Of a stretch of 50,130 nucleotides of DNA, positions 10,401-49,952 are shown in pieces. This DNA comes from an uncultured Candidatus Saccharibacteria bacterium (GTDB lineage Bacteria; Patescibacteriota; Minisyncoccia; Sungbacterales; HO2-52-23). The DNA is taken from positions 1-50,130 of the forward strand of contig CAYIBQ010000002.1 of NCBI GenBank assembly GCA_964361695.1, in the 5' to 3' direction. A program made the translations under genes and the position numbers. The notes under the pieces are model-generated. The model searched no databases. It had not been told where the DNA came from and worked only from the letters and a program-made list of their open reading frames with translations. Positions within the stretch are counted from its first letter, which is position 1. Each line of letters opens with the position of its first letter.

Positions 10401-12155
10401 TTATGCCGGGTGATGCTCTCTCGCTATCTCCTCAAGAGAGGATAGAAATGCGTCAAGAGCGTCAGTGGCATTGTGCCGAAAGTCCGCGTGCAAGGCCATA
10501 TACCGCGAACGGACACGGCGAATGGTGTCGGTCATGTATGCGCTGACCGCATGGCGACCATACCGCATGCACTCGGAAAGATGCTCCGTAACCTTCGCAA
10601 GTTCTGCTGTGAGTTCCTCTTGAAACGCATCAACGGCAAGCACATGCTCCGTCACTTTCCGCAGATGATGGCCTTTGGCGCCAAAGGCCAATGCTTCACG
10701 CAGAAGCGCCGGCTTATGCAGGAGTATTCGCAGGAGAAACCGCATGTACGCCGGACCCTCAACAGAGCACAACTGCCCGAGCGTGTAGACGCAGAAACGA
10801 AGCATTTGGCCGACCGTCAGCGGGGTCTGTGCGCTCACCGGACGCCCGCTCCGGTCAATGGACTGGAGCATATCCCAACAACGCCGGAAATAATGCTCCA
10901 GTCCTCGATCGTAGATCGTATTCAACACTCTCTTATAGCCGTCAACGAGTGTTTGTGGGGGCATCTCCGGAATGAAATTGAGTCGGGTCGAGATGTTTTG
11001 GCCAGTTGTGTCGCCCAACAGACGACCTTCTCTCTGAAGCCGGTGGTACAAATCCGTACCCTTGAGCGCCGTGAGCATTCCCTCCATCGCCGTCGCAATC
11101 TTGGCGGCCTGGATAAACTGGATATGCGCATCAAACGCATCGGGCCCGTCCCCGTCAAGACCGAGGATAAATCCTCCCAGCACTTCCAGACCCTTGCAGT
11201 GCAGCATCTGTACGGCATGGAGTGAATATTCCGGATCTGTTGTGTCTACATTTTGTCCCTTCTTGGTTTTGATCAGCGCTTCGGGCGTAGGTGTTTCAAT
11301 GCCTACGAAAACCGAAGTAAATCCCGCCGCAACCATAGCATCCACCAATTCTTCATGATCCACGAGATTCATGGACGCTTCCGTGAGGAGATTAAACGGA
11401 TACTGGCGCGCGCGTTGCCATTCCGCAAACGCCTTTAAAAATCGCAGCGCATCCCGCCTGTTCCCGATGAAATTGTCATCCACCAAAAACAAACGGCCGC
11501 GATATCCAAGCTCATACACCATCTGAAATTCAGCGAGCATTTGCTCATTGGTTTTGGTGCGTGGAATCCGTCCGTACAGCTTGGTGATGTCGCAAAATTC
11601 GCAGTCAAACGGACATCCGCGCGAAAATTGCAGAAGCATAGACGCATAATCGCGCACGCGTACGAGATCATAGCGGGGCGGGGGCGTCAGGGTGATCGCC
11701 GGACGCTCGGGGGCAGGAGTGATGTGGCGCGCCGTACCCGATTCAAGGTCGTGGAGAAATAGGGCAAACGTCTGTTCCACTTCGCCTAGAAGCAGATAAT
11801 CAACATCGTCTATTTCTTCCCAATATGACGTGGGGTGAGGGCCTCCGGCGACAACTGGTTTGCCAATGCGTTTGCAACGCGCCACTACATCTGCATGAGA
11901 ACGGCGCTGTACAATCATGGTAGATGTGCATACCAGATCTGCCCACGCAATGTCGTGATCAGTAAGCGAACGCACATTCATGTCCACGAGACGCAGATTA
12001 TAATCCGCAGGAAACATCGCCGCTATGGTCAGCAGGCCCAAAGGCGGCATAGACGACTTCTGTCCCAAAAACCGTAACGCGAACTTGAAACTCCAAAACG
12101 AGGACTCAAACTCGGGATATACCAGTAAAGCGTTTCGCATGGCCTTTATCTCCAA
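10401..12155 (-). CDS. B12-binding domain radical SAM protein (class B-like, long C-terminal helical domain)
   Basis: 584 aa. N-terminal B12-binding-like region followed by the radical SAM cluster motif SRGCPFDCEFCDI. Confidence 0.85.
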   Translation of the reverse strand: MEIKAMRNALLVYPEFESSFWSFKFALRFLGQKSSMPPLGLLTIAAMFPADYNLRLVDMNVRSLTDHDIAWADLVCTSTMIVQRRSHADVVARCKRIGKPVVAGGPHPTSYWEEIDDVDYLLLGEVEQTFALFLHDLESGTARHITPAPERPAITLTPPPRYDLVRVRDYASMLLQFSRGCPFDCEFCDITKLYGRIPRTKTNEQMLAEFQMVYELGYRGRLFLVDDNFIGNRRDALRFLKAFAEWQRARQYPFNLLTEASMNLVDHEELVDAMVAAGFTSVFVGIETPTPEALIKTKKGQNVDTTDPEYSLHAVQMLHCKGLEVLGGFILGLDGDGPDAFDAHIQFIQAAKIATAMEGMLTALKGTDLYHRLQREGRLLGDTTGQNISTRLNFIPEMPPQTLVDGYKRVLNTIYDRGLEHYFRRCWDMLQSIDRSGRPVSAQTPLTVGQMLRFCVYTLGQLCSVEGPAYMRFLLRILLHKPALLREALAFGAKGHHLRKVTEHVLAVDAFQEELTAELAKVTEHLSECMRYGRHAVSAYMTDTIRRVRSRYMALHADFRHNATDALDAFLSSLEEIAREHHPA

Positions 12156-17479: not shown

Positions 17480-17563
17480 GGGCGAGTGTCGGAACTGGCA
17501 GACGATCACGACTCAAAATCGTGTGGGGGAAACCCCGTGTGGGTTCAAATCCCACCTCGCCCA
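17480..17563 (+). tRNA. tRNA-Leu (anticodon CAA), class II with long variable arm, no encoded CCA
   Basis: Hand-folded cloverleaf: acceptor GGGCGAG/CTCGCCC, anticodon stem CACGA/TCGTG with loop CTCAAAA, variable arm GGGG-GAAA-CCCC, T arm GTGGG-TTCAAAT-CCCAC, discriminator A. Confidence 0.93.
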
Positions 17564-17569
17564 CTTTCT

Positions 17570-18268
17570 ATGCCCAAACCAAAACTTCCGTCAAAAGAGT
17601 TTACATGGACACCGGAACTTGCCTATTCCGTCGGTCTTTTGGTCACCGATGGTAATCTTTCAAAAGATGGCAGGCATATGTCTCTCCGGTCTTCGGATAA
17701 AGATCTCTTGGAGACCTTTAGAATATGTCTTCACCTGAAAAATCGCATAGCTCAGACGTACAATAACGGTTATGCAGTAAGACCAAGCTATAGGATCCAA
17801 TTCGGCAACGTACAGTTTTATGACTGGTTGCTACGTATAGGACTCTTCCCTGCCAAGACATACACTATCGGGAAAATACAAATTCCCGGAGAATATTTTA
17901 GGGATTTTCTTAGAGGACATCTCGATGGAGATGGCTCAATTCTCACATATAGTGATGATTATAACGTTTACAAAGGAAAACGCTATCTAAATACCCGTAT
18001 CTACACTAACTTTATTTCTGCAAGTAAGAGACATATTTTATGGCTTGCTCGCATGATACGAAGCCGTGCATCAGTGCAGGGAAATATAGAACGAAGTAAT
18101 GCAAAAGAAAATAGAGTACCGATATGGAAAATAAGATTTGCCAAATATGAGTCACTGACCCTCCTCCGTTGGATATATTATCGGAATAGATTACCTTCAC
18201 TCAAAAGAAAGCGCCGACTTTCTGAAGCGCTCCTCAAACGGGTGAGGAATGATAGACTTGTTCGTTAA
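17570..18268 (+). CDS. Free-standing double-motif LAGLIDADG homing endonuclease
   Basis: Two LAGLIDADG motifs (VGLLVTDGNLSKDG and FLRGHLDGDGSI). The ATG lies 7 nt after the tRNA 3' end. By eye it is AT-richer than its neighbours. Confidence 0.85.
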   Translation: MPKPKLPSKEFTWTPELAYSVGLLVTDGNLSKDGRHMSLRSSDKDLLETFRICLHLKNRIAQTYNNGYAVRPSYRIQFGNVQFYDWLLRIGLFPAKTYTIGKIQIPGEYFRDFLRGHLDGDGSILTYSDDYNVYKGKRYLNTRIYTNFISASKRHILWLARMIRSRASVQGNIERSNAKENRVPIWKIRFAKYESLTLLRWIYYRNRLPSLKRKRRLSEALLKRVRNDRLVR

Positions 18269-29605: not shown

Positions 29606-29629
29606 GCCGCCGTCTTTCACGACGGCGGC
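29606..29629. terminator. Bidirectional intrinsic terminator between convergent genes
   Basis: 9-bp GC stem GCCGCCGTC/GACGGCGGC with a 6-nt loop, flanked by AAAAAAT on one side and TCGTTTTGC on the other. Confidence 0.65.
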
Positions 29630-29638
29630 TCGTTTTGC

Positions 29639-29911
29639 TTACGCGCTTTTTATATCGCTCATGATGGTGCGGCGCCACAAGCAATATCCAAAATCATGTG
29701 CCACGATGACAAATGAATACCGGAGAATGAGATCGTATTTCTGCGGATCTTCTCCGGAGAGAAGTATCTCATACCGTTTGCGGTCTATACTGTCCATCAT
29801 CGCTTCGAGGCGATCAAGCCCCAGCGGGTGGACGTAGAAATCAGGCATTTGTTCGTAGCTCGCAGAAGTCGCCTGACGCACAGTAAGAATATGGCCGATG
29901 ATTGCATCCAT
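29639..29911 (-). CDS. Hypothetical protein (90 aa)
   Basis: Start set at MDAIIGH (29911), preceded by GAGGAG plus 7 nt. The longer ORF would run through the upstream terminator-like hairpin. No family recognised. Confidence 0.45.
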   Translation of the reverse strand: MDAIIGHILTVRQATSASYEQMPDFYVHPLGLDRLEAMMDSIDRKRYEILLSGEDPQKYDLILRYSFVIVAHDFGYCLWRRTIMSDIKSA

Positions 29912-29940
29912 CGCAATACTCCTCGCGTTGTAAAAGTGCA

Positions 29941-30143
29941 AACAAAAAACCCATGCGTCCGGCATAGGGTTACTGCTGAAAAATCAGCGGGTGTCTTGCT
30001 CGGACGCGCGTGGGAAGCCATGAGCTTCGCATAGGGAGGTCCGGACTTATCCCGATCCGCCAGTTGGCGGAGGGACATACCGTTGCGGCACAGTGCAGGC
30101 ATTTAACCTGCTTCACTCCATAACCACGTAGATTTTCAAGTAT
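29941..30143 (-). ncRNA. Candidate structured ncRNA (RNase P catalytic-domain-like motifs; alternatively a cis-regulatory leader)
   Basis: It has its own promoter (30148-30176). The sequence is GC-rich and non-coding, with at least 4 hairpins and a terminal hairpin plus T6. The segment GGCGGAUCGGGAUAAGUCCGGACCUCCCUAU and the segment CCGAGCAAGAC resemble M1 RNA P3/J3-4/P4/P5 and J5/15 respectively. The class is unverified. Confidence 0.4.
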
Positions 30144-30147
30144 TGAG

Positions 30148-30176
30148 ATATTATCTCTAAACAATACTCCCGTCAA
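30148..30176 (-). promoter_or_regulatory. Sigma70-like promoter for the candidate ncRNA
   Basis: On the minus strand: TTGACG, 17-nt spacer, TAATAT. The -35 box overlaps the stop codon of the hicB-like gene. Confidence 0.5.
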
Positions 30177-30439
30177 TAGGATTCCTGTCCTATCACAAGA
30201 GGCGGAATAAAAGCCGTATCTTTCTTGCCCCAACCCAAACCGGCAAGAACTTCTTCAAGTGTTCCTTTCTTATGCAACTCTTCTAATAGTAGTATTGCGG
30301 CTTCGCCAAAGAGTTGCCGCGCTTCCGTAAGCGTCTTGCCGCACGCAGACAAATCCAAAACCGGAGAATAAGCGATAAATTGCTTATCTTCCTTTAAAAA
30401 GGCGACGGGTAGCTGAAGCTGTGCGCTTACTTTCGACAT
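30173..30439 (-). CDS. Orphan HicB-like antitoxin (no adjacent HicA)
   Basis: 88 aa with FIAYSPVLDLSACGKTLTEARQLFGEAAILLLEELHKKGTLEEVL, parallel to the ORF at 18876-19157. Confidence 0.6.
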   Translation of the reverse strand: MSKVSAQLQLPVAFLKEDKQFIAYSPVLDLSACGKTLTEARQLFGEAAILLLEELHKKGTLEEVLAGLGWGKKDTAFIPPLVIGQESY

Positions 30440-30464
30440 ATATCCTATATCCCATGACAGTAGT

Positions 30465-30647
30465 TTACAGACTCTTTTTTACTACAACGATCGGAGATCT
30501 GATGCGATATGGTTCCTTTTTTGTCACTAGGATCTCTCGCACTGCTGAACGGCTTTGGACAATTGCGTTCCGTATACGTTCAAAGGCATCTGCCCGCTCC
30601 TTCAATTCTATAAGAAAATCTGGTTTTTTCTCTATTCTATTAAACAT
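30465..30647 (-). CDS. Hypothetical 60-aa protein
   Basis: ORF lying between the protease and the hicB-like gene. No clear SD and no family recognised. Confidence 0.25.
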   Translation of the reverse strand: MFNRIEKKPDFLIELKERADAFERIRNAIVQSRSAVREILVTKKEPYRIRSPIVVVKKSL

Positions 30648-33945: not shown

Positions 33946-36900
33946 TCAGACCACAAAATTGATCAGTTTGTCTGGGACAAAAATAACTTTTTTCGGCTCT
34001 GCGGAAAGGTGCCGTGCGACACCAGGAACGCCGCGCGCTCTGCGCACGGCGTCTCCCTCGCTGGTACCCATCGCCAGCACAAGCCGCCCGCGTACTTTGC
34101 CGTTCACCTGTATGATCAGCTCAAACGTTTTCTGCGCAATCATTGCCGGATTGTAGAGCGGCCATGCTTCGTGATGAATGGATTTTGGTTTTCCTTTTAT
34201 AAATCCCTGCCACAATTCTTCCGTGATGTGCGGTGCTAGGGGTGCCAGTAATTTCAAAAATATTTTTATGTCCTCGCGCGCGACCGCGTGCTCATTTTCT
34301 TCAAAGACGTTGAGTAATACCATAAGCGCCGAGATCGCCGTATTATATTGGAGATTTTCTATATCATCCGTCACCTTTTTTATGGCGCGATGAAGAGCTC
34401 TCTGCATATTTTCGTTTTTGATTTTCCGCTGTTGTCTCTTGTGTGCCAACACCCATACCCGTTCCAGAAAGCGCGTGATGCCTTTGATCCCTGCGGCGCG
34501 AAAATCGACTCCCTGCTCCCATGGCGCCAGAAACATGAGGTACATGCGAAGAGCGTCTGCGCCGTAGGCGCGGATATACTCATCGGGATTGATGATATTT
34601 CCTTTTGATTTTGACATCTTGGCGCCGTCTTTGATGATGAGACCGTGCGCGCGGAAAACCGGCATCGGTTCTTCAAAATCCACGAGTCCCGCATCGTGCA
34701 AAGCCATGGCCAAGAATCGCACATACAAAAGATGCAGGACCGAATGCTCTGCCCCTCCCATATAGCGCGTAACCGGAAGCCATTTTTTCGTAATTGCCGG
34801 ACTCCATGCGGCTTTTTTGTCGCCGACACTTGGATAACGCAGGTAATACCATGCAGAATCCAAAAACGTATCCGAGACATCGGTCTCGCGGCGCGCCCAG
34901 TTCTTGCATCCTGGACACCGAACTTTGTAAAACTTCGTAACACCCGCAAGCGGCGACTGATCCTTCCCTGTCGGCCGAAAATTTTTGACAAAAGGAAGTT
35001 TTATCGGCAAAGATTTTTCCGATGCCGTGTACCATCCGGGCATTTCGGCGCGCTCGCCTTTTTTTGCAACAGCACATGCGTCACAGAAAATCATCGGAAT
35101 CGGCGGCGCCCAGTAGCGCTGGCGGCTAATCAGCCAATCACGGAGATGATACGTCGTCACAAGCTTTCCATCTACAAATTTTGTGATCTCCCCTTTTGCC
35201 GTCTGCCAATCCATGCCGTTGAACTTCCCTGAATTCACCACCATGCCGCCTTCCGTGTATGCTTCGGTGCCCTTTAAAATCTCATCAAAAAGCTCCGGAA
35301 AGGCATTCGTCCTCATCTGCTTAAAAAGGAAGTGTCCCTTACCGATGAATTTCACGATCTTCCCTTGGAGCGCCTCGGCGTACAGTATGGCGGACTTTCT
35401 GTGTCGCTCCTCATCGTCATCGGAGATCAAGATAACGATCTCGCCGACATTGTTGCGAATACGCGGATCAATACTAAAATCATATAGATTGCGTATGAAT
35501 TCGCTCGCATCATCCGCCGGAATCTTCGCTCCAGCAAGCAAAATCAATTTCTTCATCTTCCTTTGCGTCTCTCCGAGCCAACGCACCAGAAAAGCGCCCC
35601 CGCAACTATGTCCTACCGCAACGGTATTTTCATCCACCGGTATTTTTTCAAACTCTTTTTTCCACGCCTCATAGTCCGGCTTCCACGGTTCGGGCAACAG
35701 AGGCGTAAACGCCTGAATCTTTTCTTTCTGCATCTGCTCCCTCATCCACGGAATCCAGTGCTTGTCACTCGCTTTTGTCACGTCCGTCGTATCTTCCTGT
35801 CTGCTAGGACATCCGTGTACTAATACGCACTTCATGCCCTTGGGTACGATCACTGTGCGCTCGGCGATGCCATACTTTCTTGCAAACTCAAAATCGCGTT
35901 CATCGTGCGCCGGAACCGCCATGATAGCGCCCGTGCCGACATCTCCCAAGACATAATTGACCACCCACACCGGGATCTTCTCTCCATTGGCAGGATTGAT
36001 CCCCGACACACCCGTGGAGACGCCTTCTTTCTCGCGCTCCCCTTCGTTATCGCTTTTCGGCTTGGCACGGTGCTGAAGCTCTGCCGCGACAAAATCCTTT
36101 ACTTTTTCTGGCGCCTGCCACCCGACATCCAACCATTTTCTTGCCGTTTCGGGAGAGATCGCAAGGAATGTCGCTCCGAAAAGCGTATCCGGCCGCGTGG
36201 TAAAGACCTCAACATCATGTTTTCCGTTCACTTGACCAGAGATGCCTGCAAGAGAAAACTTGATCAACGCGCCTTCGGACTCGCCGATCCACTCTTTTTG
36301 CGCGATTTTCACGCGCTCCGACCAATCAAGCGTTTCAAGATTTTTCAACAAGCGCGGCGCGTACTTCGTGATACGGAAAAACCACTGCTCAAGCTCTTTT
36401 TTCACCACGACCGTACCGCACCGCTCGCATTTACCCGCAATCACCTGCTCATCGGCCAACACGGTCTTGCATGACGGACACCAATTCACCGACTGTTTTT
36501 TACGGTACGCCAAGCCCTGCTTAAACATGTGGACAAATATCCACTGGGTCCACTTATAGTATGCGGGATCGTACGTCTCCAGCCGCTCGCGCCACGCAAA
36601 CCCGTTGCCGATCATGGCAAGCTGGCGATAAAAGTTTTTTTCGGAGACGCGCGCCTGCTTCATCGGGTGCGCGCCGATTTTTAGGGCGTAGTTTTCCGAG
36701 TGAATTCCGAATCCGTCCAAACCCATGGGCTGAAACACGTCGTATCCCTGCATGCGCTTCAGGCGTCCATAAATATCAGATCCCACAAACGCATACATAT
36801 TGCCCACGTGAAGTCCCTCGGCAGACGGATACGGAAACATCATCAAATTATAAAAGGGCTTCTTCGCGCGCAAAAAATCCGGCTCGTACGTTTTATCCAC

Positions 36901-36951
36901 GAGCCATTTCTTCTGCCACATGGCTTCAATTTTTTTGGGATTATATCGCAT
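33946..36951 (-). CDS. leuS: Leucyl-tRNA synthetase with an inserted YdeN/RBBP9-like alpha/beta-hydrolase domain
   Basis: 1001 aa. HIGH-like motif HVGN, editing-domain motifs TTRPDT and AHDERDFEFA, and KMSKSKGN. There is an extra segment of about 190 aa at roughly residues 372-562 (see finding). Confidence 0.95.
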   Translation of the reverse strand: MRYNPKKIEAMWQKKWLVDKTYEPDFLRAKKPFYNLMMFPYPSAEGLHVGNMYAFVGSDIYGRLKRMQGYDVFQPMGLDGFGIHSENYALKIGAHPMKQARVSEKNFYRQLAMIGNGFAWRERLETYDPAYYKWTQWIFVHMFKQGLAYRKKQSVNWCPSCKTVLADEQVIAGKCERCGTVVVKKELEQWFFRITKYAPRLLKNLETLDWSERVKIAQKEWIGESEGALIKFSLAGISGQVNGKHDVEVFTTRPDTLFGATFLAISPETARKWLDVGWQAPEKVKDFVAAELQHRAKPKSDNEGEREKEGVSTGVSGINPANGEKIPVWVVNYVLGDVGTGAIMAVPAHDERDFEFARKYGIAERTVIVPKGMKCVLVHGCPSRQEDTTDVTKASDKHWIPWMREQMQKEKIQAFTPLLPEPWKPDYEAWKKEFEKIPVDENTVAVGHSCGGAFLVRWLGETQRKMKKLILLAGAKIPADDASEFIRNLYDFSIDPRIRNNVGEIVILISDDDEERHRKSAILYAEALQGKIVKFIGKGHFLFKQMRTNAFPELFDEILKGTEAYTEGGMVVNSGKFNGMDWQTAKGEITKFVDGKLVTTYHLRDWLISRQRYWAPPIPMIFCDACAVAKKGERAEMPGWYTASEKSLPIKLPFVKNFRPTGKDQSPLAGVTKFYKVRCPGCKNWARRETDVSDTFLDSAWYYLRYPSVGDKKAAWSPAITKKWLPVTRYMGGAEHSVLHLLYVRFLAMALHDAGLVDFEEPMPVFRAHGLIIKDGAKMSKSKGNIINPDEYIRAYGADALRMYLMFLAPWEQGVDFRAAGIKGITRFLERVWVLAHKRQQRKIKNENMQRALHRAIKKVTDDIENLQYNTAISALMVLLNVFEENEHAVAREDIKIFLKLLAPLAPHITEELWQGFIKGKPKSIHHEAWPLYNPAMIAQKTFELIIQVNGKVRGRLVLAMGTSEGDAVRRARGVPGVARHLSAEPKKVIFVPDKLINFVV

Positions 36952-46546: not shown

Positions 46547-48442
46547 TTATGGTCTCACATTCCATTCTTCTCCCTTGACCAAGGGATCCTGGGGCATCTG
46601 CGTATCAAGGCCGGGTATATCCAGACGCACGTCTTGGGCGGTAAACATATCGCGGCCGGTAAAATGAGTGTCTCCGATGAGAGCCGGTGAGCTCCCAAGA
46701 TCAACGGCTGATGGGATGATAGACACCTGAAACGCGGCAACGCGCGCTGGTGTCAGCACTCCCGTGCCAGCCGGTATCCTGCCCATGCGCCACCGCACTT
46801 CTCCGGATGCGTTGTCAAACCGCACATCCGCGTCACTTGGGGATATGACGTTTTCCCATCGGACGTTGGGCGGCAGAGAAGCGCGCATCTCCCCACCCTC
46901 CACATCGTTGGTGAAATTGCGTACCTCCCAGACAATGGCATAGGTAGTTTTTTCTCCAACCTTTGGCGGCAGAGGGCCGGTATTGGGTATGGGAGAGGTG
47001 CGAAATACGGTACGACCTGCCGTCAGCACGACCGTGGATACCTTGAATGTCACGCTGTCTTCCGGAGCCAGCACAGATCCGTGCAACTCATCCGGAACAG
47101 TCGGCGTCTCAATGCGGGTGCGCATACGAATAGTCATATTTTTATCGGCGCTTGTTGATACCACCGGCCGCGGCCGCACGCGCGCCTGCAGATGCAGGGT
47201 ACCCTCATGGCCGGGTGCTGCTTCGCGCAGTACGTCAGTACCCCCCGGACCCCACACGATATTTTTGGTCGCAAAGTCAAACACGCCGCCGTCTCCGATA
47301 GTCAGCGATGAGACATCAAGCACGCTTGTCTCAAGCGCCAAACGTATGGAAACATTTTTCACCGCAACTGCCGAGCGATTGCGATACCGCACAGTCATGG
47401 AGATAAAATCCCCGGGTTTGACGATGCCCTCGCGCTGGCCCCCAATCGCGGCTTCCAGGAGAAAGGGGGATGACGAGAGCGCCACTTCGCGCACCGACTC
47501 ATACCACGGCTTCCATTCTTTTGTCAGTTCATTGAAAGATCCGATCCCCGCCCGCAGGGACTGGATGTCCCCGCCCGCGGTTCCGAATGTCGTTTTCAAC
47601 GAAATGGTTCGTTCCTCGCCGGGGGAGAGCGTGCCGACAAACCACCGCGCATCCGTACTGCTCGCTACGGGTACCGCAGAAACAATGGAAAAACCTGGTG
47701 GATATTCAAGCATGAGCCAAAGATTGTCAAACGAGGAGCCGGCCTGGGAACTGTAGCGTAGGATAATCGGCACTTCCTGTCCGGGTGTTACGGTTGCGGG
47801 TATGTCCCATGAAATCGCGAGCGGTACCCGCGCGATAGTCACTTTTTTTTCCGCTGAAGAAGAAAAGCGCGCGCGGAGTCCCGCGGGACGATACACCAGT
47901 TCCGCAAAAACAGTTTTTTCTTCCGTTTCGCGGCCGAAAAATTGTACCTGAAATTCCTCCCGCCGTTCTTCCCCCGCCGCGAGCGCCCCGATGCGGCGTA
48001 CCACGCGGCCTGCTATCGGCTCCATGAATCCTGCCTGATTTTGTAGGAGCGTGTCGGGCGGAAACATGGCCACGAGATCCGCTTCTTCCAGCACGCCACC
48101 GGACACGTTGCGAAACATGATGGGGACAGTCGTCAGTTCTCCTGCCTCCACGCGATCGCGCCCGCCGATTTCCACCTGCGCCTCATATCGGTTGCTCCCA
48201 AGATATAAAAACGCAAAAACAGCGGCGCCGATGATAAATAAAACTCCCGCGAGTGCGGCAATGGCTGTCGCTTTGGAAAATCGCCGTGCGGACGCCATAC
48301 TCGGACGCGGCTTGGCCGCCTCCCACGAAGTGCGCAGTTTATTTCCCAGAGACGGAAACATGGCCTGACGTTTGCTCCTGCCGGTCGGCAATTTGTCTTC
48401 CCGTCCGTAGAGGGACTCTTCAAGTTCGTCCAGCTTACTCAT
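46547..48442 (-). CDS. Large membrane-anchored hypothetical protein (beta-rich extracellular repeats)
   Basis: 631 aa. One N-terminal TM helix (AIAALAGVLFIIGAAVFAFLYL) followed by long beta-strand-like repeats. No catalytic motif recognised. Confidence 0.6.
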   Translation of the reverse strand: MSKLDELEESLYGREDKLPTGRSKRQAMFPSLGNKLRTSWEAAKPRPSMASARRFSKATAIAALAGVLFIIGAAVFAFLYLGSNRYEAQVEIGGRDRVEAGELTTVPIMFRNVSGGVLEEADLVAMFPPDTLLQNQAGFMEPIAGRVVRRIGALAAGEERREEFQVQFFGRETEEKTVFAELVYRPAGLRARFSSSAEKKVTIARVPLAISWDIPATVTPGQEVPIILRYSSQAGSSFDNLWLMLEYPPGFSIVSAVPVASSTDARWFVGTLSPGEERTISLKTTFGTAGGDIQSLRAGIGSFNELTKEWKPWYESVREVALSSSPFLLEAAIGGQREGIVKPGDFISMTVRYRNRSAVAVKNVSIRLALETSVLDVSSLTIGDGGVFDFATKNIVWGPGGTDVLREAAPGHEGTLHLQARVRPRPVVSTSADKNMTIRMRTRIETPTVPDELHGSVLAPEDSVTFKVSTVVLTAGRTVFRTSPIPNTGPLPPKVGEKTTYAIVWEVRNFTNDVEGGEMRASLPPNVRWENVISPSDADVRFDNASGEVRWRMGRIPAGTGVLTPARVAAFQVSIIPSAVDLGSSPALIGDTHFTGRDMFTAQDVRLDIPGLDTQMPQDPLVKGEEWNVRP

Positions 48443-48447
48443 CTCTT

Positions 48448-48921
48448 TTATACTATCCCCTCTTCATCAGACGCGCCATACCCCAGAGACACCCTGAATC
48501 GTGCCCGAAAATCAGTGAGAAACGGAGACATATCATCTTCAGAGAATTCTTCGTGGTCAAGTACCGCAAACGTATGGTTGAGCAGTTCCCATATCTGGGT
48601 ATCTTTTTCACCCGGAAAACATTGTATATCCACCTCGCGCGCGATCTCGGCGGCCACCAGCAGCGTATGCTCGCGCGAACGCAGGCGCGGGAAAAAGTCG
48701 GCGAGCGTGGCGCCGATCAGTTTTTCCCCGCCCCTGCCGATGACAAATTGAACACGCGCGAGCGACAGCGGCTCCAGATGCCCGCGCAGTTTTGCCTCCT
48801 CCCGGCGTACACCCTGGGCAAGAGCGCGCATTTTCCCAAAATCGCGCGTATACATGCTGTAGAGCGCATCATGCTCCCCCACATCCAGTTTTTTCAAGAC
48901 AATCCCCTCGGTATGGTGCAT
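48448..48921 (-). CDS. recO: DNA repair protein RecO (short form, no zinc-finger C-terminus)
   Basis: 157 aa with MHHTEGIVLKKLDVGEHDALYSMYTRDFGKMRALAQGVRR, an OB-fold RecO N-terminus. Confidence 0.8.
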   Translation of the reverse strand: MHHTEGIVLKKLDVGEHDALYSMYTRDFGKMRALAQGVRREEAKLRGHLEPLSLARVQFVIGRGGEKLIGATLADFFPRLRSREHTLLVAAEIAREVDIQCFPGEKDTQIWELLNHTFAVLDHEEFSEDDMSPFLTDFRARFRVSLGYGASDEEGIV

Positions 48922-48927
48922 ACCGCA

Positions 48928-49929
48928 TTATGCGGTTTTTTCTGACAAGAGCGCAATATCGCGCCTGATCCTTTGCGCATTTCCGTGCCCCAGCATCCCG
49001 AGATATGATTGCACCACTTCTCCTTTCCCGACTTTCTTGCTGATAGTGCGCATCATCCTCCGCTTTGTCGCTGTCCGTAGCACCCGATGATCGGCGAAAT
49101 GCACCCACCCGAGAAAGTCAACGCCCGAAGCAAGCGTTTTGATGAAGACCTTGTCCGGATGCAATACCAGATTCATCTTCTCGTGCAAGAAAGTGCCGAT
49201 CAACGGTAGTATCCGCTCAAGTGCCGCGCGATCGTCCGACAGCACAACAAAATCATCCGCGTAGCGGATATAATACCGCACTTTGAGCGTATGCTTCACA
49301 AACTGATCAAACTCATTCATATATACGTTCGCAAAAAGCTGGGACGTGAGATTACCGAGCGGCAAGCCCGTGCCTTGCTTCTCCGATGAAAAACTTGAGA
49401 TCACTTCCCACAACAGTCCGAGAATACGAGCGTCCGGAATATACTGCCACAGAATATCCAGCAGTACGGTGTGATCCACACTCGCAAAGAACTTTTTGAT
49501 GTCGCACTTGAGTACCCAACACGCGCGCGTGTTATTTTTACTCACCATGCGGCCGAACGCGCGAAAACGGTTGATGGCGCGATGGGTACCCTTCTCCACT
49601 CTGCACGAATACGAGTCAGTAATAAACACGCGGTCAAAGAAGGGATACAGTTTCCGATAGAGCGCGTGGTGCAGGAGCCGATCTCGCACCGTCGCTTTGT
49701 GGATAATCCGCGGTTTGGGATCGGAGATGTTGAAGGCATGATAGCCGCCGTGGCAATAGGTGCGATTGGCAAGATCGCGGTGGAGCGCAAGAATATTATC
49801 CATAAGAGACATCTGAAACTCCTGCACGTCTTGTTTATTCCGCTTGCCTTTGATAAACTCCCGCCATGCGTCAAGCAGATTTTCCACGCTGATAATATCT
49901 TCGTATGTATGACTCAACTGAATTTTCAT
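48928..49929 (-). CDS. Reverse transcriptase, diversity-generating retroelement (DGR) type
   Basis: 333 aa. Has the DGR-typical motif LPLGNLTSQLFANVY, the catalytic YADD, an N-terminal LLDAWREFIKGKRNKQDV, and SYSCRVEKGTH. The ATG at 49929 is preceded by GGAGG plus 5 nt. Confidence 0.85.
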   Translation of the reverse strand: MKIQLSHTYEDIISVENLLDAWREFIKGKRNKQDVQEFQMSLMDNILALHRDLANRTYCHGGYHAFNISDPKPRIIHKATVRDRLLHHALYRKLYPFFDRVFITDSYSCRVEKGTHRAINRFRAFGRMVSKNNTRACWVLKCDIKKFFASVDHTVLLDILWQYIPDARILGLLWEVISSFSSEKQGTGLPLGNLTSQLFANVYMNEFDQFVKHTLKVRYYIRYADDFVVLSDDRAALERILPLIGTFLHEKMNLVLHPDKVFIKTLASGVDFLGWVHFADHRVLRTATKRRMMRTISKKVGKGEVVQSYLGMLGHGNAQRIRRDIALLSEKTA

Positions 49930-49952
49930 AACAACCTCCAAGCGGACTTATC

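Follow-up and report, generated by a model that had tools for sequence, protein, structure and literature searches.

A non-coding structured RNA of ~200 nt is encoded on the minus strand of the DNA analysed here, a stretch of 50,130 nt from an uncultured Candidatus Saccharibacteria bacterium (contig CAYIBQ010000002.1, hereafter the window), where it lies between a promoter and an open reading frame (ORF) of 90 aa. This RNA probably belongs to the cobalamin-riboswitch clan, as a divergent member or variant that scores below threshold, carries a transcription-termination platform and serves as the leader of a one-gene operon. A previous interpretation of the same DNA made from the letters only, the sequence-only reading, saw in it a minimal bacterial RNase P RNA consisting of the catalytic core with no specificity domain, and mentioned as an alternative a riboswitch or attenuator leader of the 90-aa ORF. 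It is this alternative that has gained support.

Relatives of the RNA were reached through the small ORF. Four close homologues of the ORF, all from Hainich groundwater metagenomes, were found initially, to which a profile search of 1.8 billion representatives added two distant members and a second profile search the remainder of a family of 16, one of them annotated in a Candidatus Sungiibacteriota metagenome-assembled genome (MAG) of the Patescibacteria/Parcubacteria group. The contigs of eleven family members were examined. R1, a covariance model of the aptamer built only from Patescibacteria-type sequences, detects the RNA at 89-116 bits immediately 5' of the small ORF in every homologous locus with upstream sequence, nine of these loci not having been used in building the model; it has no match in L027, where the contig begins 53 nt before the ORF, and L003, which begins inside the terminator, was left out. 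In all loci, the RNA is the leader of one and the same small ORF, shares its strand and is never free-standing, and the order of genes is conserved, that is, Sua5, a cytidylyltransferase-like gene, dCMP deaminase, the RNA, the small ORF, a convergent HIT gene, thyA and DHFR/SHMT. A protein-database search with a spurious L005 ORF called across the RNA, meant to recover further RNA copies, returned nothing.

The minus-strand promoter of the sequence-only reading (TTGACG-17-TAATAT) is indeed present, and relatives have a promoter at the equivalent position, in flanking sequence that is unalignable (TTGACA-17-TACAAT in L021; -10 boxes TATAGT or TATACT in L002, L004 and L005). The RNA is 64-83% identical to its counterparts in L021 and L022, as compared with 54-61% for the nucleotides of the downstream ORF, and its minimum free energy is -77.8 kcal/mol vs -61.9 +/- 4.4 kcal/mol for dinucleotide shuffles (z = -3.58). 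The stretch had been described as having no credible ORF, which is borne out by the fact that the mechanical ORFs of 87 and 101 aa overlapping the RNA are frameshifted in relatives by indels (2, 10 and 11 nt).

The assignment to the cobalamin clan comes, in part, from Rfam. When 29850-30250 was scanned at E<=10 with all 4227 families, the best match was RF00174, the cobalamin riboswitch, with 19.9 bits (E=0.004 for this local stretch and E=0.54 for the whole window). The same family matches L005 (31.3 bits, E=8e-6), L022 (29.0 bits, E=2.3e-4), L004 (27.3 bits, E=1.2e-4) and L021 (26.3 bits, E=1.3e-3), and is the sole one to match the window and all four relatives scanned, the other matches over the RNA being scattered, weak (E ~0.01-10) and different from locus to locus. 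At the Rfam gathering thresholds, the whole window has no match except a tRNA. Three stretches align with the RF00174 consensus, which are GUGAAG-CAGGUUAAAUGCCUG with GGGAA-cccGGUGcaAauCCggg, CACUGU-GCCGCAACGGUA with GCuGCCCCCGCaACUGUA, and AAGUCCGG--ACCUCCC with gAGCCAGGAGACCuGCC, the B12 box. The last of these means that the stretch previously likened to CR-I/P4 of M1 RNA corresponds to the B12-box region of cobalamin riboswitches. Two placements proposed by Rfam were rejected, namely an alternative, downstream B12 box in L022 (GCGCAAGGC), which entails many non-canonical pairs while covariation favours the upstream box, and an outer helix in L005 (CUUCGCAUAC/GUAUGCGAAG), whose 5' strand runs into the -10 box and has no counterpart in other members.

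The structure tells the same story helix by helix. Closing helix, P4, P5 and P6 form a four-way junction in the order that is canonical for the clan, and this arrangement has covariation support (coordinates of all elements are given in the table). In an R1-based alignment of 12 distinct sequences, 98.5% of the cells in the aptamer helices are paired and seven pairs are compensatory, three in the closing helix (UAUGGAG/CUCCCUA, UAUAGGG/CCCUAUA and UAUAAAG/CUUUAUA are among its variants), one in P4 and three in upper P6. None of 500 shuffles matches the observed values on four of five measures, and sliding the 3' partner by 1-3 columns lowers pairing to 27-58%. An independent MAFFT alignment of six sequences gives 96.7% pairing and six compensatory pairs for the aptamer, the two downstream hairpins P-a and P-b, and the terminator taken together, vs 31-44% when partners are slid by 1-3 columns. 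The loop of P4 is 7 nt long in all sequences, as in the clan consensus UGNNAAU; most have UGAGAAU, others UGAGAUG, UGGGAUU or UGGGAAU, and the window a more divergent UUAAAUG. The hairpins that had been listed from the letters are all present in the window. In relatives, GCAGG/CCUGC, UCCC/GGGA and GAAGC/GCUUC show compensatory changes, as does GCUGA/UCAGC as judged by eye (G-C to A-U in L024); conservation of the third hairpin does not extend to its outer GCG/CGC.

The B12-box-like segment AAGUCCGGACCUCC aligns to the RF00174 B12 box with a 2-nt deletion, and at the P6 base a G-C pair stands in place of the consensus U-A (ACGG...CCGG vs ACUG...CCAGG), changed on both strands. The apical extension of P6 is lost or swapped for 6-15 nt of unrelated sequence in L005, L021, L022, L023, L026, L028 and L031. 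It was also observed that L5 (30089-30087), J6/3 (30041-30039) and the antiterminator strand (30000) co-vary as two sequence types, the first with L5 GCC, J6/3 GAC and antiterminator CCGAGC (window clade and L031), the second with L5 CGC, J6/3 AGC or AAC, and antiterminator CCGCGC or CCGCGU (all other loci). This co-change may reflect tertiary or alternative pairing, or only shared ancestry.

Another line of evidence comes from six loci (L015-L020), retrieved by scanning metagenomes with the pattern CCGCAACGGTA-N(8-38)-AGTCCGGACC, in which a compact aptamer lies 5' of an ORF whose N-terminus resembles, by eye, that of a TonB-dependent (BtuB-type) receptor; in L015, where the element occupies 881-1017 on the minus strand, this ORF is found beside an ABC ATPase-like ORF (by eye). 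The L015 element scores 49.3 bits with RF01482, the AdoCbl riboswitch (cut-off 50, E=2.8e-8), and L015-L018 have no match at gathering thresholds, which is why default annotation overlooks them. The match of R1 to each of the six elements runs end to end, scores 26-30 bits (E ~3e-6) and preserves all helices, and R1 has no match in L006-L008 and L010, which are chance matches of a looser pattern. These elements share with the present RNA an exact CCGCAACGGUA...AGUCCGGACC and the same helices in the same order; the core of AAGUCCGGACCUCC is identical in them, and in L015 the equivalent segment aligns to AAGUCAGGUCUUU of RF01482. They have, in contrast, their own junctions (J3/4 AGGAAAU and J6/3 GACCAU), relative to which J3/4 and J6/3 of the present RNA are shorter by 3 nt and 2-3 nt respectively, and, unlike the present RNA, no terminator is seen in the short stretch between their aptamer and ribosome-binding site (RBS), which suggests translational control. 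A further pattern, GCCGCAACNGTA..AGTCCGGACC, applied to a genome collection gave nine chance matches, none a cobalamin element; seven of them share a repeated element, probably an insertion-sequence end, in Alphaproteobacteria/Stellaceae MAGs, and the other two are unrelated sequence.

Among known cobalamin elements, the class-II-type ones (RF01482 AdoCbl, RF01689 AdoCbl-variant; env8 and env50 Cbl-II) have in common with the RNA a compact four-way junction free of the P7-P11 peripheral domain, a 5-bp P4 with a 7-nt loop (mostly UGAGAAU here vs a UGaaAAU consensus), a P5 of 3 bp, a P6 whose internal loop is 5' UAU/3' AAGU and whose apex is variable, and a B12-box variant, AAGUC(C/A)GG. Like the present RNA, some Cbl-II members also have no J1/3 element (PMC6158498). 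It differs from this class by J3/4 and J6/3 that are 1-3 nt shorter, by an L5 for which no P13/L13 partner was found, by terminator/antiterminator control instead of RBS sequestration, and by an extra conserved hairpin (P-a) and invariant GUGG...CCCAC flanks. The Rfam clan filter retained RF00174, not RF01482, as best match. This class I family, which is the best Rfam match in five of five sequences, shares the motifs GAA-P4(GGUGNNAAUCC)-CUG-CCGCAAC-GUA and AG(Y)C(M)GG...ACCU(S)CC with the present RNA, in which its 5' hairpin and large P6 peripheral extension are missing. If GUGG and CCAC pair, the extra hairpin of the outer junction would come from the 3' side (P-a) and not, as in class I, from the 5' side.

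The 3' half of the RNA is as conserved as the aptamer. Directly after the latter comes P-a, whose stem is kept in all sequences with inner pairs that exchange C-G, U-A and U-G, and whose loop varies in length and sequence. The CCAC that follows is complementary to GUGG in the leader, and their pairing, in a modelled fold, could create a three-way junction around the aptamer and P-a; both motifs are invariant (CCCAC in 12/12 sequences) and show no covariation. Next is an antiterminator, in which GUCC(G)/(C)GGAY and GCA/UGC pairing is present in 12/12 distinct sequences (the GCGUCCG/CGGACGC complementarity on which the sequence-only reading had based its alternative), with P-b at the apex, whose mismatch in the window is replaced by G-C in L021 and L022. 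The 3' end, already described as GCAUGGG followed by six U, is an intrinsic terminator; it has 7-8 bp in 12/12 sequences and compensatory exchanges at two of its positions (C-G/U-A and A-U/G-C), and the RBS and ATG lie 20-33 nt beyond the U-tract. Energies computed for six sequences are -14 to -19 kcal/mol for the antiterminator duplex and -6.5 to -9.7 kcal/mol for the terminator hairpin, the duplex being the more stable of the two. In the RNAalifold prediction, the whole RNA forms one nested fold, with leader GAAAAYCUA paired to the terminator 3' arm and U-tract, GUGG to CCAC, and the antiterminator around P-b. Of 108 cells, 104 keep the leader/3'-arm pairing, which is better than with shuffled leaders in only 6/10 sequences and is partly just an A-run facing a U-run; in L028, a compensatory change favours the terminator over it.

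The leader probably works as follows. Transcription would begin at ~30141, as suggested by the promoter, and 30122-30032 fold as a cobalamin-riboswitch-type aptamer, after which the terminator (29968-29944) competes with the stronger antiterminator, formed by GCGUCCGAGCA (30007-29997) with the end of the terminator 5' arm and its loop, the two helices being mutually exclusive. The outcome would decide whether RNA polymerase reads through into the 90-aa ORF (29911-29639), and ligand occupancy would presumably shift the choice. The ligand may well be a corrinoid (adenosyl-, methyl- or hydroxocobalamin), as indicated by the family resemblance, the B12-box variant common to TonB-receptor-like leaders, and a B12-binding radical SAM gene in the window. 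The product of this gene (10401-12155, minus strand, 18 kb from the 90-aa ORF) is 584 aa long and combines a radical SAM domain and DUF4070 with a B12-binding domain (PF02310), hence the organism plausibly uses cobalamin. As for the sign of the switch, we lean weakly, on family precedent only, towards OFF, with ligand promoting termination. Two observations that might have informed on the coupling were not retained, since the strong aptamer/antiterminator pairings in L021 and L022 are lineage-specific, and the move of the balance towards the antiterminator in 10/11 sequences upon constrained folding with an enforced aptamer, which might be taken for an ON switch, is regarded as a generic effect of the constraint.

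Several points weigh against assigning the RNA to the cobalamin clan, or against parts of this mechanism. All RF00174 scores are below the 31.5-bit gathering cut-off, so that by score the RNA stays outside clan CL00101. The 12-sequence alignment was fitted to the model structure, and P5 and the P6 base are invariant and hence receive no covariation support. The L015-L020 loci were retrieved with a pattern taken from this RNA, which means that part of the reciprocal score arises by construction, although the helix-by-helix agreement does not follow from how the loci were selected. The junctions lining the pocket are short (J3/4 UGAA vs UGGAA(G) or GGGAA; J6/3 3 nt vs 4-6), and by eye, in all sequences, L5 (GCC or CGC) has no consistent complement of the L5-L13 type in P-a, P-b, the terminator loops or the antiterminator strand, a kissing loop that in Cbl-II is the regulatory switch (PMC6158498). 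No aptamer strand appears to sequester the antiterminator, duplex energies being no better than those of shuffled antiterminator strands (z -0.85 to +1.9). Finally, the regulated gene has no known link to B12.

Variant riboswitches that switch ligand on the parent fold are an established phenomenon. The short junctions and sub-cut-off scores could therefore also be those of a cobalamin fold retuned to another ligand (folate-, nucleotide- or cofactor-related) and controlling an orphan gene in a dTMP-synthesis cluster, the more so as the RNA is strictly tied to the dCMP deaminase, HIT, thyA, DHFR and SHMT set, which holds no gene for B12 transport, synthesis or a B12 isozyme. This is unlikely, owing to the preservation of the most conserved motifs of the clan (GGUGNNAAUCC-like P4/L4, GCCGCAACGGUA and AAGUCCGG), the presence of the exact B12-box variant AGUCCGGACC in elements 5' of a TonB-receptor-like ORF, and the B12-dependent enzyme encoded nearby. 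Much the same low credence is given to a broader speculation, a Patescibacteria-specific offshoot of the cobalamin fold with short pocket junctions, a permuted outer junction, an orphan target, and either a non-corrinoid ligand tied to thymidylate/folate metabolism or a natural ON-type cobalamin logic; the readings with changed ligand or ON logic are not favoured by the evidence. That the terminated transcript of ~197 nt is a stand-alone or trans-acting small RNA with paired ends, readthrough into the ORF being incidental, is very improbable. The complementarity of its ends, the single closed fold of RNAalifold and a 3' half conserved like the aptamer would suit such an RNA, but in every locus it directly precedes the same ORF on its strand, the ORF has no promoter of its own that was noticed in the ~30-nt gap between U-tract and RBS, and the shuffled leaders and the change in L028 speak against the pairing of its ends. 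No more credit goes to an attenuator driven by a protein, a tRNA or a leader peptide without direct ligand sensing, in which the likeness to cobalamin elements would be coincidental. It would account for the sub-cut-off scores and for the fact that no coupling between aptamer and platform was found, but leaves aside that RF00174 was matched independently in five divergent homologues with the same helices, that covariation fits the cobalamin architecture and covariance-model matches are reciprocal, that indels interrupt every frame and so leave no conserved leader ORF, and that no T-box or other leader family matches.

This leaves the minimal RNase P RNA, for which there is next to no chance. 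Its appeal came from AAGUCCGG and GAGCAAG, around which short stretches resemble E. coli M1 RNA, and from long-range complementarity between the 5' and 3' parts; GUCCGG/CCGGAC, GGUUAU/GUAACC, GAAAAUCUA/UGGGUUUUU and GCGUCCG/CGGACGC can all be found in the window. The comparison with RNase P covariance models that the sequence-only reading had itself proposed gives no match with any such model of Rfam (including RF00010, RF00011, RF00373 and the archaeal type T model RF02357) in 29850-30250 at E<=10, in the whole window at E<=1, or in relatives scanned whole at E limits of 1-5, and there is no rnpB in the 50-kb window. That reading had also named a significant match to another RNA family as grounds for abandoning RNase P, and the cobalamin riboswitch is such a match (local E 8e-6 to 4e-3). 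The proposed helices lack support from covariation in relatives. P2 (GGUUAU/GUAACC) is unpaired at >=1 positions in three of six sequences, with an insertion there in L021 and L022. P4 (GUCCGG/CCGGAC) is invariant in the six-sequence alignment and thus without covariation, is broken without compensation in L026 (AAGCCCG, loop AGGAC), and its terminator-loop nucleotides are accounted for by the antiterminator. The P3 hairpin is the dispensable apical insertion of P6, and P1 is the leader/terminator-3'-arm pairing, a complementarity that shows one-sided changes only. The same nucleotides are used by the better-scoring, covariation-supported cobalamin-type fold, and the RNA is, in all loci, a cis leader with terminator and RBS, not a free-standing gene. 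The absence of a covariance-model match, the unsupported helices and the cis-leader context, together, lead us to reject an RNase P RNA.

What the putative cobalamin-type riboswitch would regulate is an orphan family of 16 proteins of ~90-116 aa, whose invariant residues include P23-D24-F25, F67, V70, G75, C77 and W79. The 90-aa protein has no significant match among Pfam, NCBIfam or PDB sequence profiles. The best of two AlphaFold models (predicted local distance difference test, pLDDT, 69 and 79; 78.8 for the best) displays a short strand and helix, a long helix, a second helix and a beta hairpin, so a small alpha/beta fold is predicted, and neither model has a Foldseek match in PDB better than E=3.5. 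The sole functional clue is the fixed place of the gene in the dCMP deaminase/HIT/thyA/DHFR/SHMT cluster.

In the window and L002, a small variable cassette is found between the upstream genes and the RNA, which has its own promoter in each. In the window, two ORFs of 88 and 60 aa (30173-30647, minus strand) lie directly upstream of this promoter, have no Pfam match and may, by eye only, represent a toxin-antitoxin pair of the HicB/HicA kind; the 88-aa ORF has its stop codon within the -35 box. Positions 1-332 of L002 hold a partly different cassette with a weak HicA_toxin match, and L021, L023 and L024 have no cassette, so that the interval from the dCMP deaminase or protease gene to the riboswitch has the look of a site of variable insertions. 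In L022, a near-perfect inverted repeat of ~60 nt (GAUAUUCCAGACUAAGUCUGG..., 1752-1815) lies between two convergent genes and gives spurious plant-miRNA matches; it is probably a bidirectional terminator or a repeat element.

Table. Elements of the putative riboswitch and its operon, in window coordinates; RNA motifs are read 5' to 3' on the strand given.
Feature	Coordinates	Strand	Description
Sigma-70-type promoter	30148..30176	-	-35 TTGACG 30176-30171, -10 TAATAT 30153-30148, 17-nt spacer
5' leader	30123..30140	-	CUUGAAAAUCUACGUGGU; contains GAAAAUCUA, complementary to terminator 3' arm and U-tract, and invariant GUGG 30127-30124, complementary to downstream invariant CCAC
Cobalamin-type aptamer	30032..30122	-	four-way junction; RF00174 matches, covariation, covariance-model matches to AdoCbl-type aptamers
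Closing helix	30122-30116 with 30038-30032	-	UAUGGAG with CUCCCUA
J3/4		-	UGAA, between closing helix and P4
P4 hairpin	30111-30095	-	GCAGG-N7-CCUGC; 7-nt T-loop-like loop
P5 hairpin	30092-30084	-	UGU-GCC-GCA
P6	30082-30042	-	base CGG with CCG; upper P6 UCCC with GGGA; variable apex
P6 internal loop		-	UAU on 5' side, AAGU on 3' side
P6 apical extension	30056..30071	-	UCCGCC-AACU-GGCGGA; variable; the P3 of the sequence-only reading
B12-box-like segment	30035..30048	-	AAGUCCGGACCUCC; 3' side of P6 internal loop, P6 base, J6/3, start of closing helix
J6/3	30041-30039	-	GAC; only 3 nt
Hairpin P-a	30014..30028	-	GAAGC-UCAUG-GCUUC; directly 3' of aptamer
Invariant CCCAC	30010..30014	-	12/12 sequences; CCAC complementary to 5' GUGG
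Antiterminator 5' strand	29995..30007	-	GCGUCCGAGCAAG; pairs with terminator 5'-arm end, loop and first 3'-arm bases (UGC-CGGACGC)
Hairpin P-b	29973..29990	-	CCGCUGA-UUUU-UCAGCAG; apex of antiterminator
Intrinsic terminator	29944..29968	-	CCUAUGC-CGGAC-GCAUGGG 29968-29950, U6 29949-29944
Regulated gene	29639..29924	-	RBS GAGGAG 29924-29919; 90-aa ORF, ATG 29911, stop ending 29639
Bidirectional terminator hairpin	29606..29629	.	ends small ORF and convergent HIT-family gene

Elsewhere in the window, three features are worth mentioning. At 46547-49941 (minus strand), a reverse transcriptase (RVT_1, 48928-49941) adjoins a 631-aa protein with a weak DUF11 match (46547-48442), and this locus could be a diversity-generating retroelement or another retroelement. 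At 17480-18268 (plus strand), an 84-nt tRNA with a long variable arm is overlapped, and followed, by a mechanical ORF (17486-18268) with a weak LAGLIDADG_3 match. At 33946-36951 (minus strand), a leucyl-tRNA synthetase of 1001 aa carries a serine-hydrolase/alpha-beta-hydrolase insert at residues 393-544, an unusual fusion.

In conclusion, a bacterial RNase P RNA reduced to its catalytic domain would have been a major finding, but this claim can be set aside. What takes its place is modest in novelty, a variant specific to a lineage of Patescibacteria, in which the junctions are shortened, a 3' hairpin is added and the target gene is an orphan, and which nonetheless outlines a coherent riboswitch family in Patescibacteria, or Candidate Phyla Radiation-type, genomes that was overlooked at Rfam gathering thresholds. 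Our literature searches gave no paper that couples the cobalamin riboswitch with Patescibacteria, and a single one in which riboswitches, the Candidate Phyla Radiation and cobalamin all appear. The riboswitch points to a conserved uncharacterised 90-aa protein, tightly regulated in reduced genomes and encoded near dCMP deaminase, thyA, DHFR and SHMT. If its ligand is B12, corrinoid availability would be tied to a step near thymidylate/folate metabolism in organisms that depend on a host or community for cofactors; if it is not, the RNA would represent a new ligand class on an old fold.

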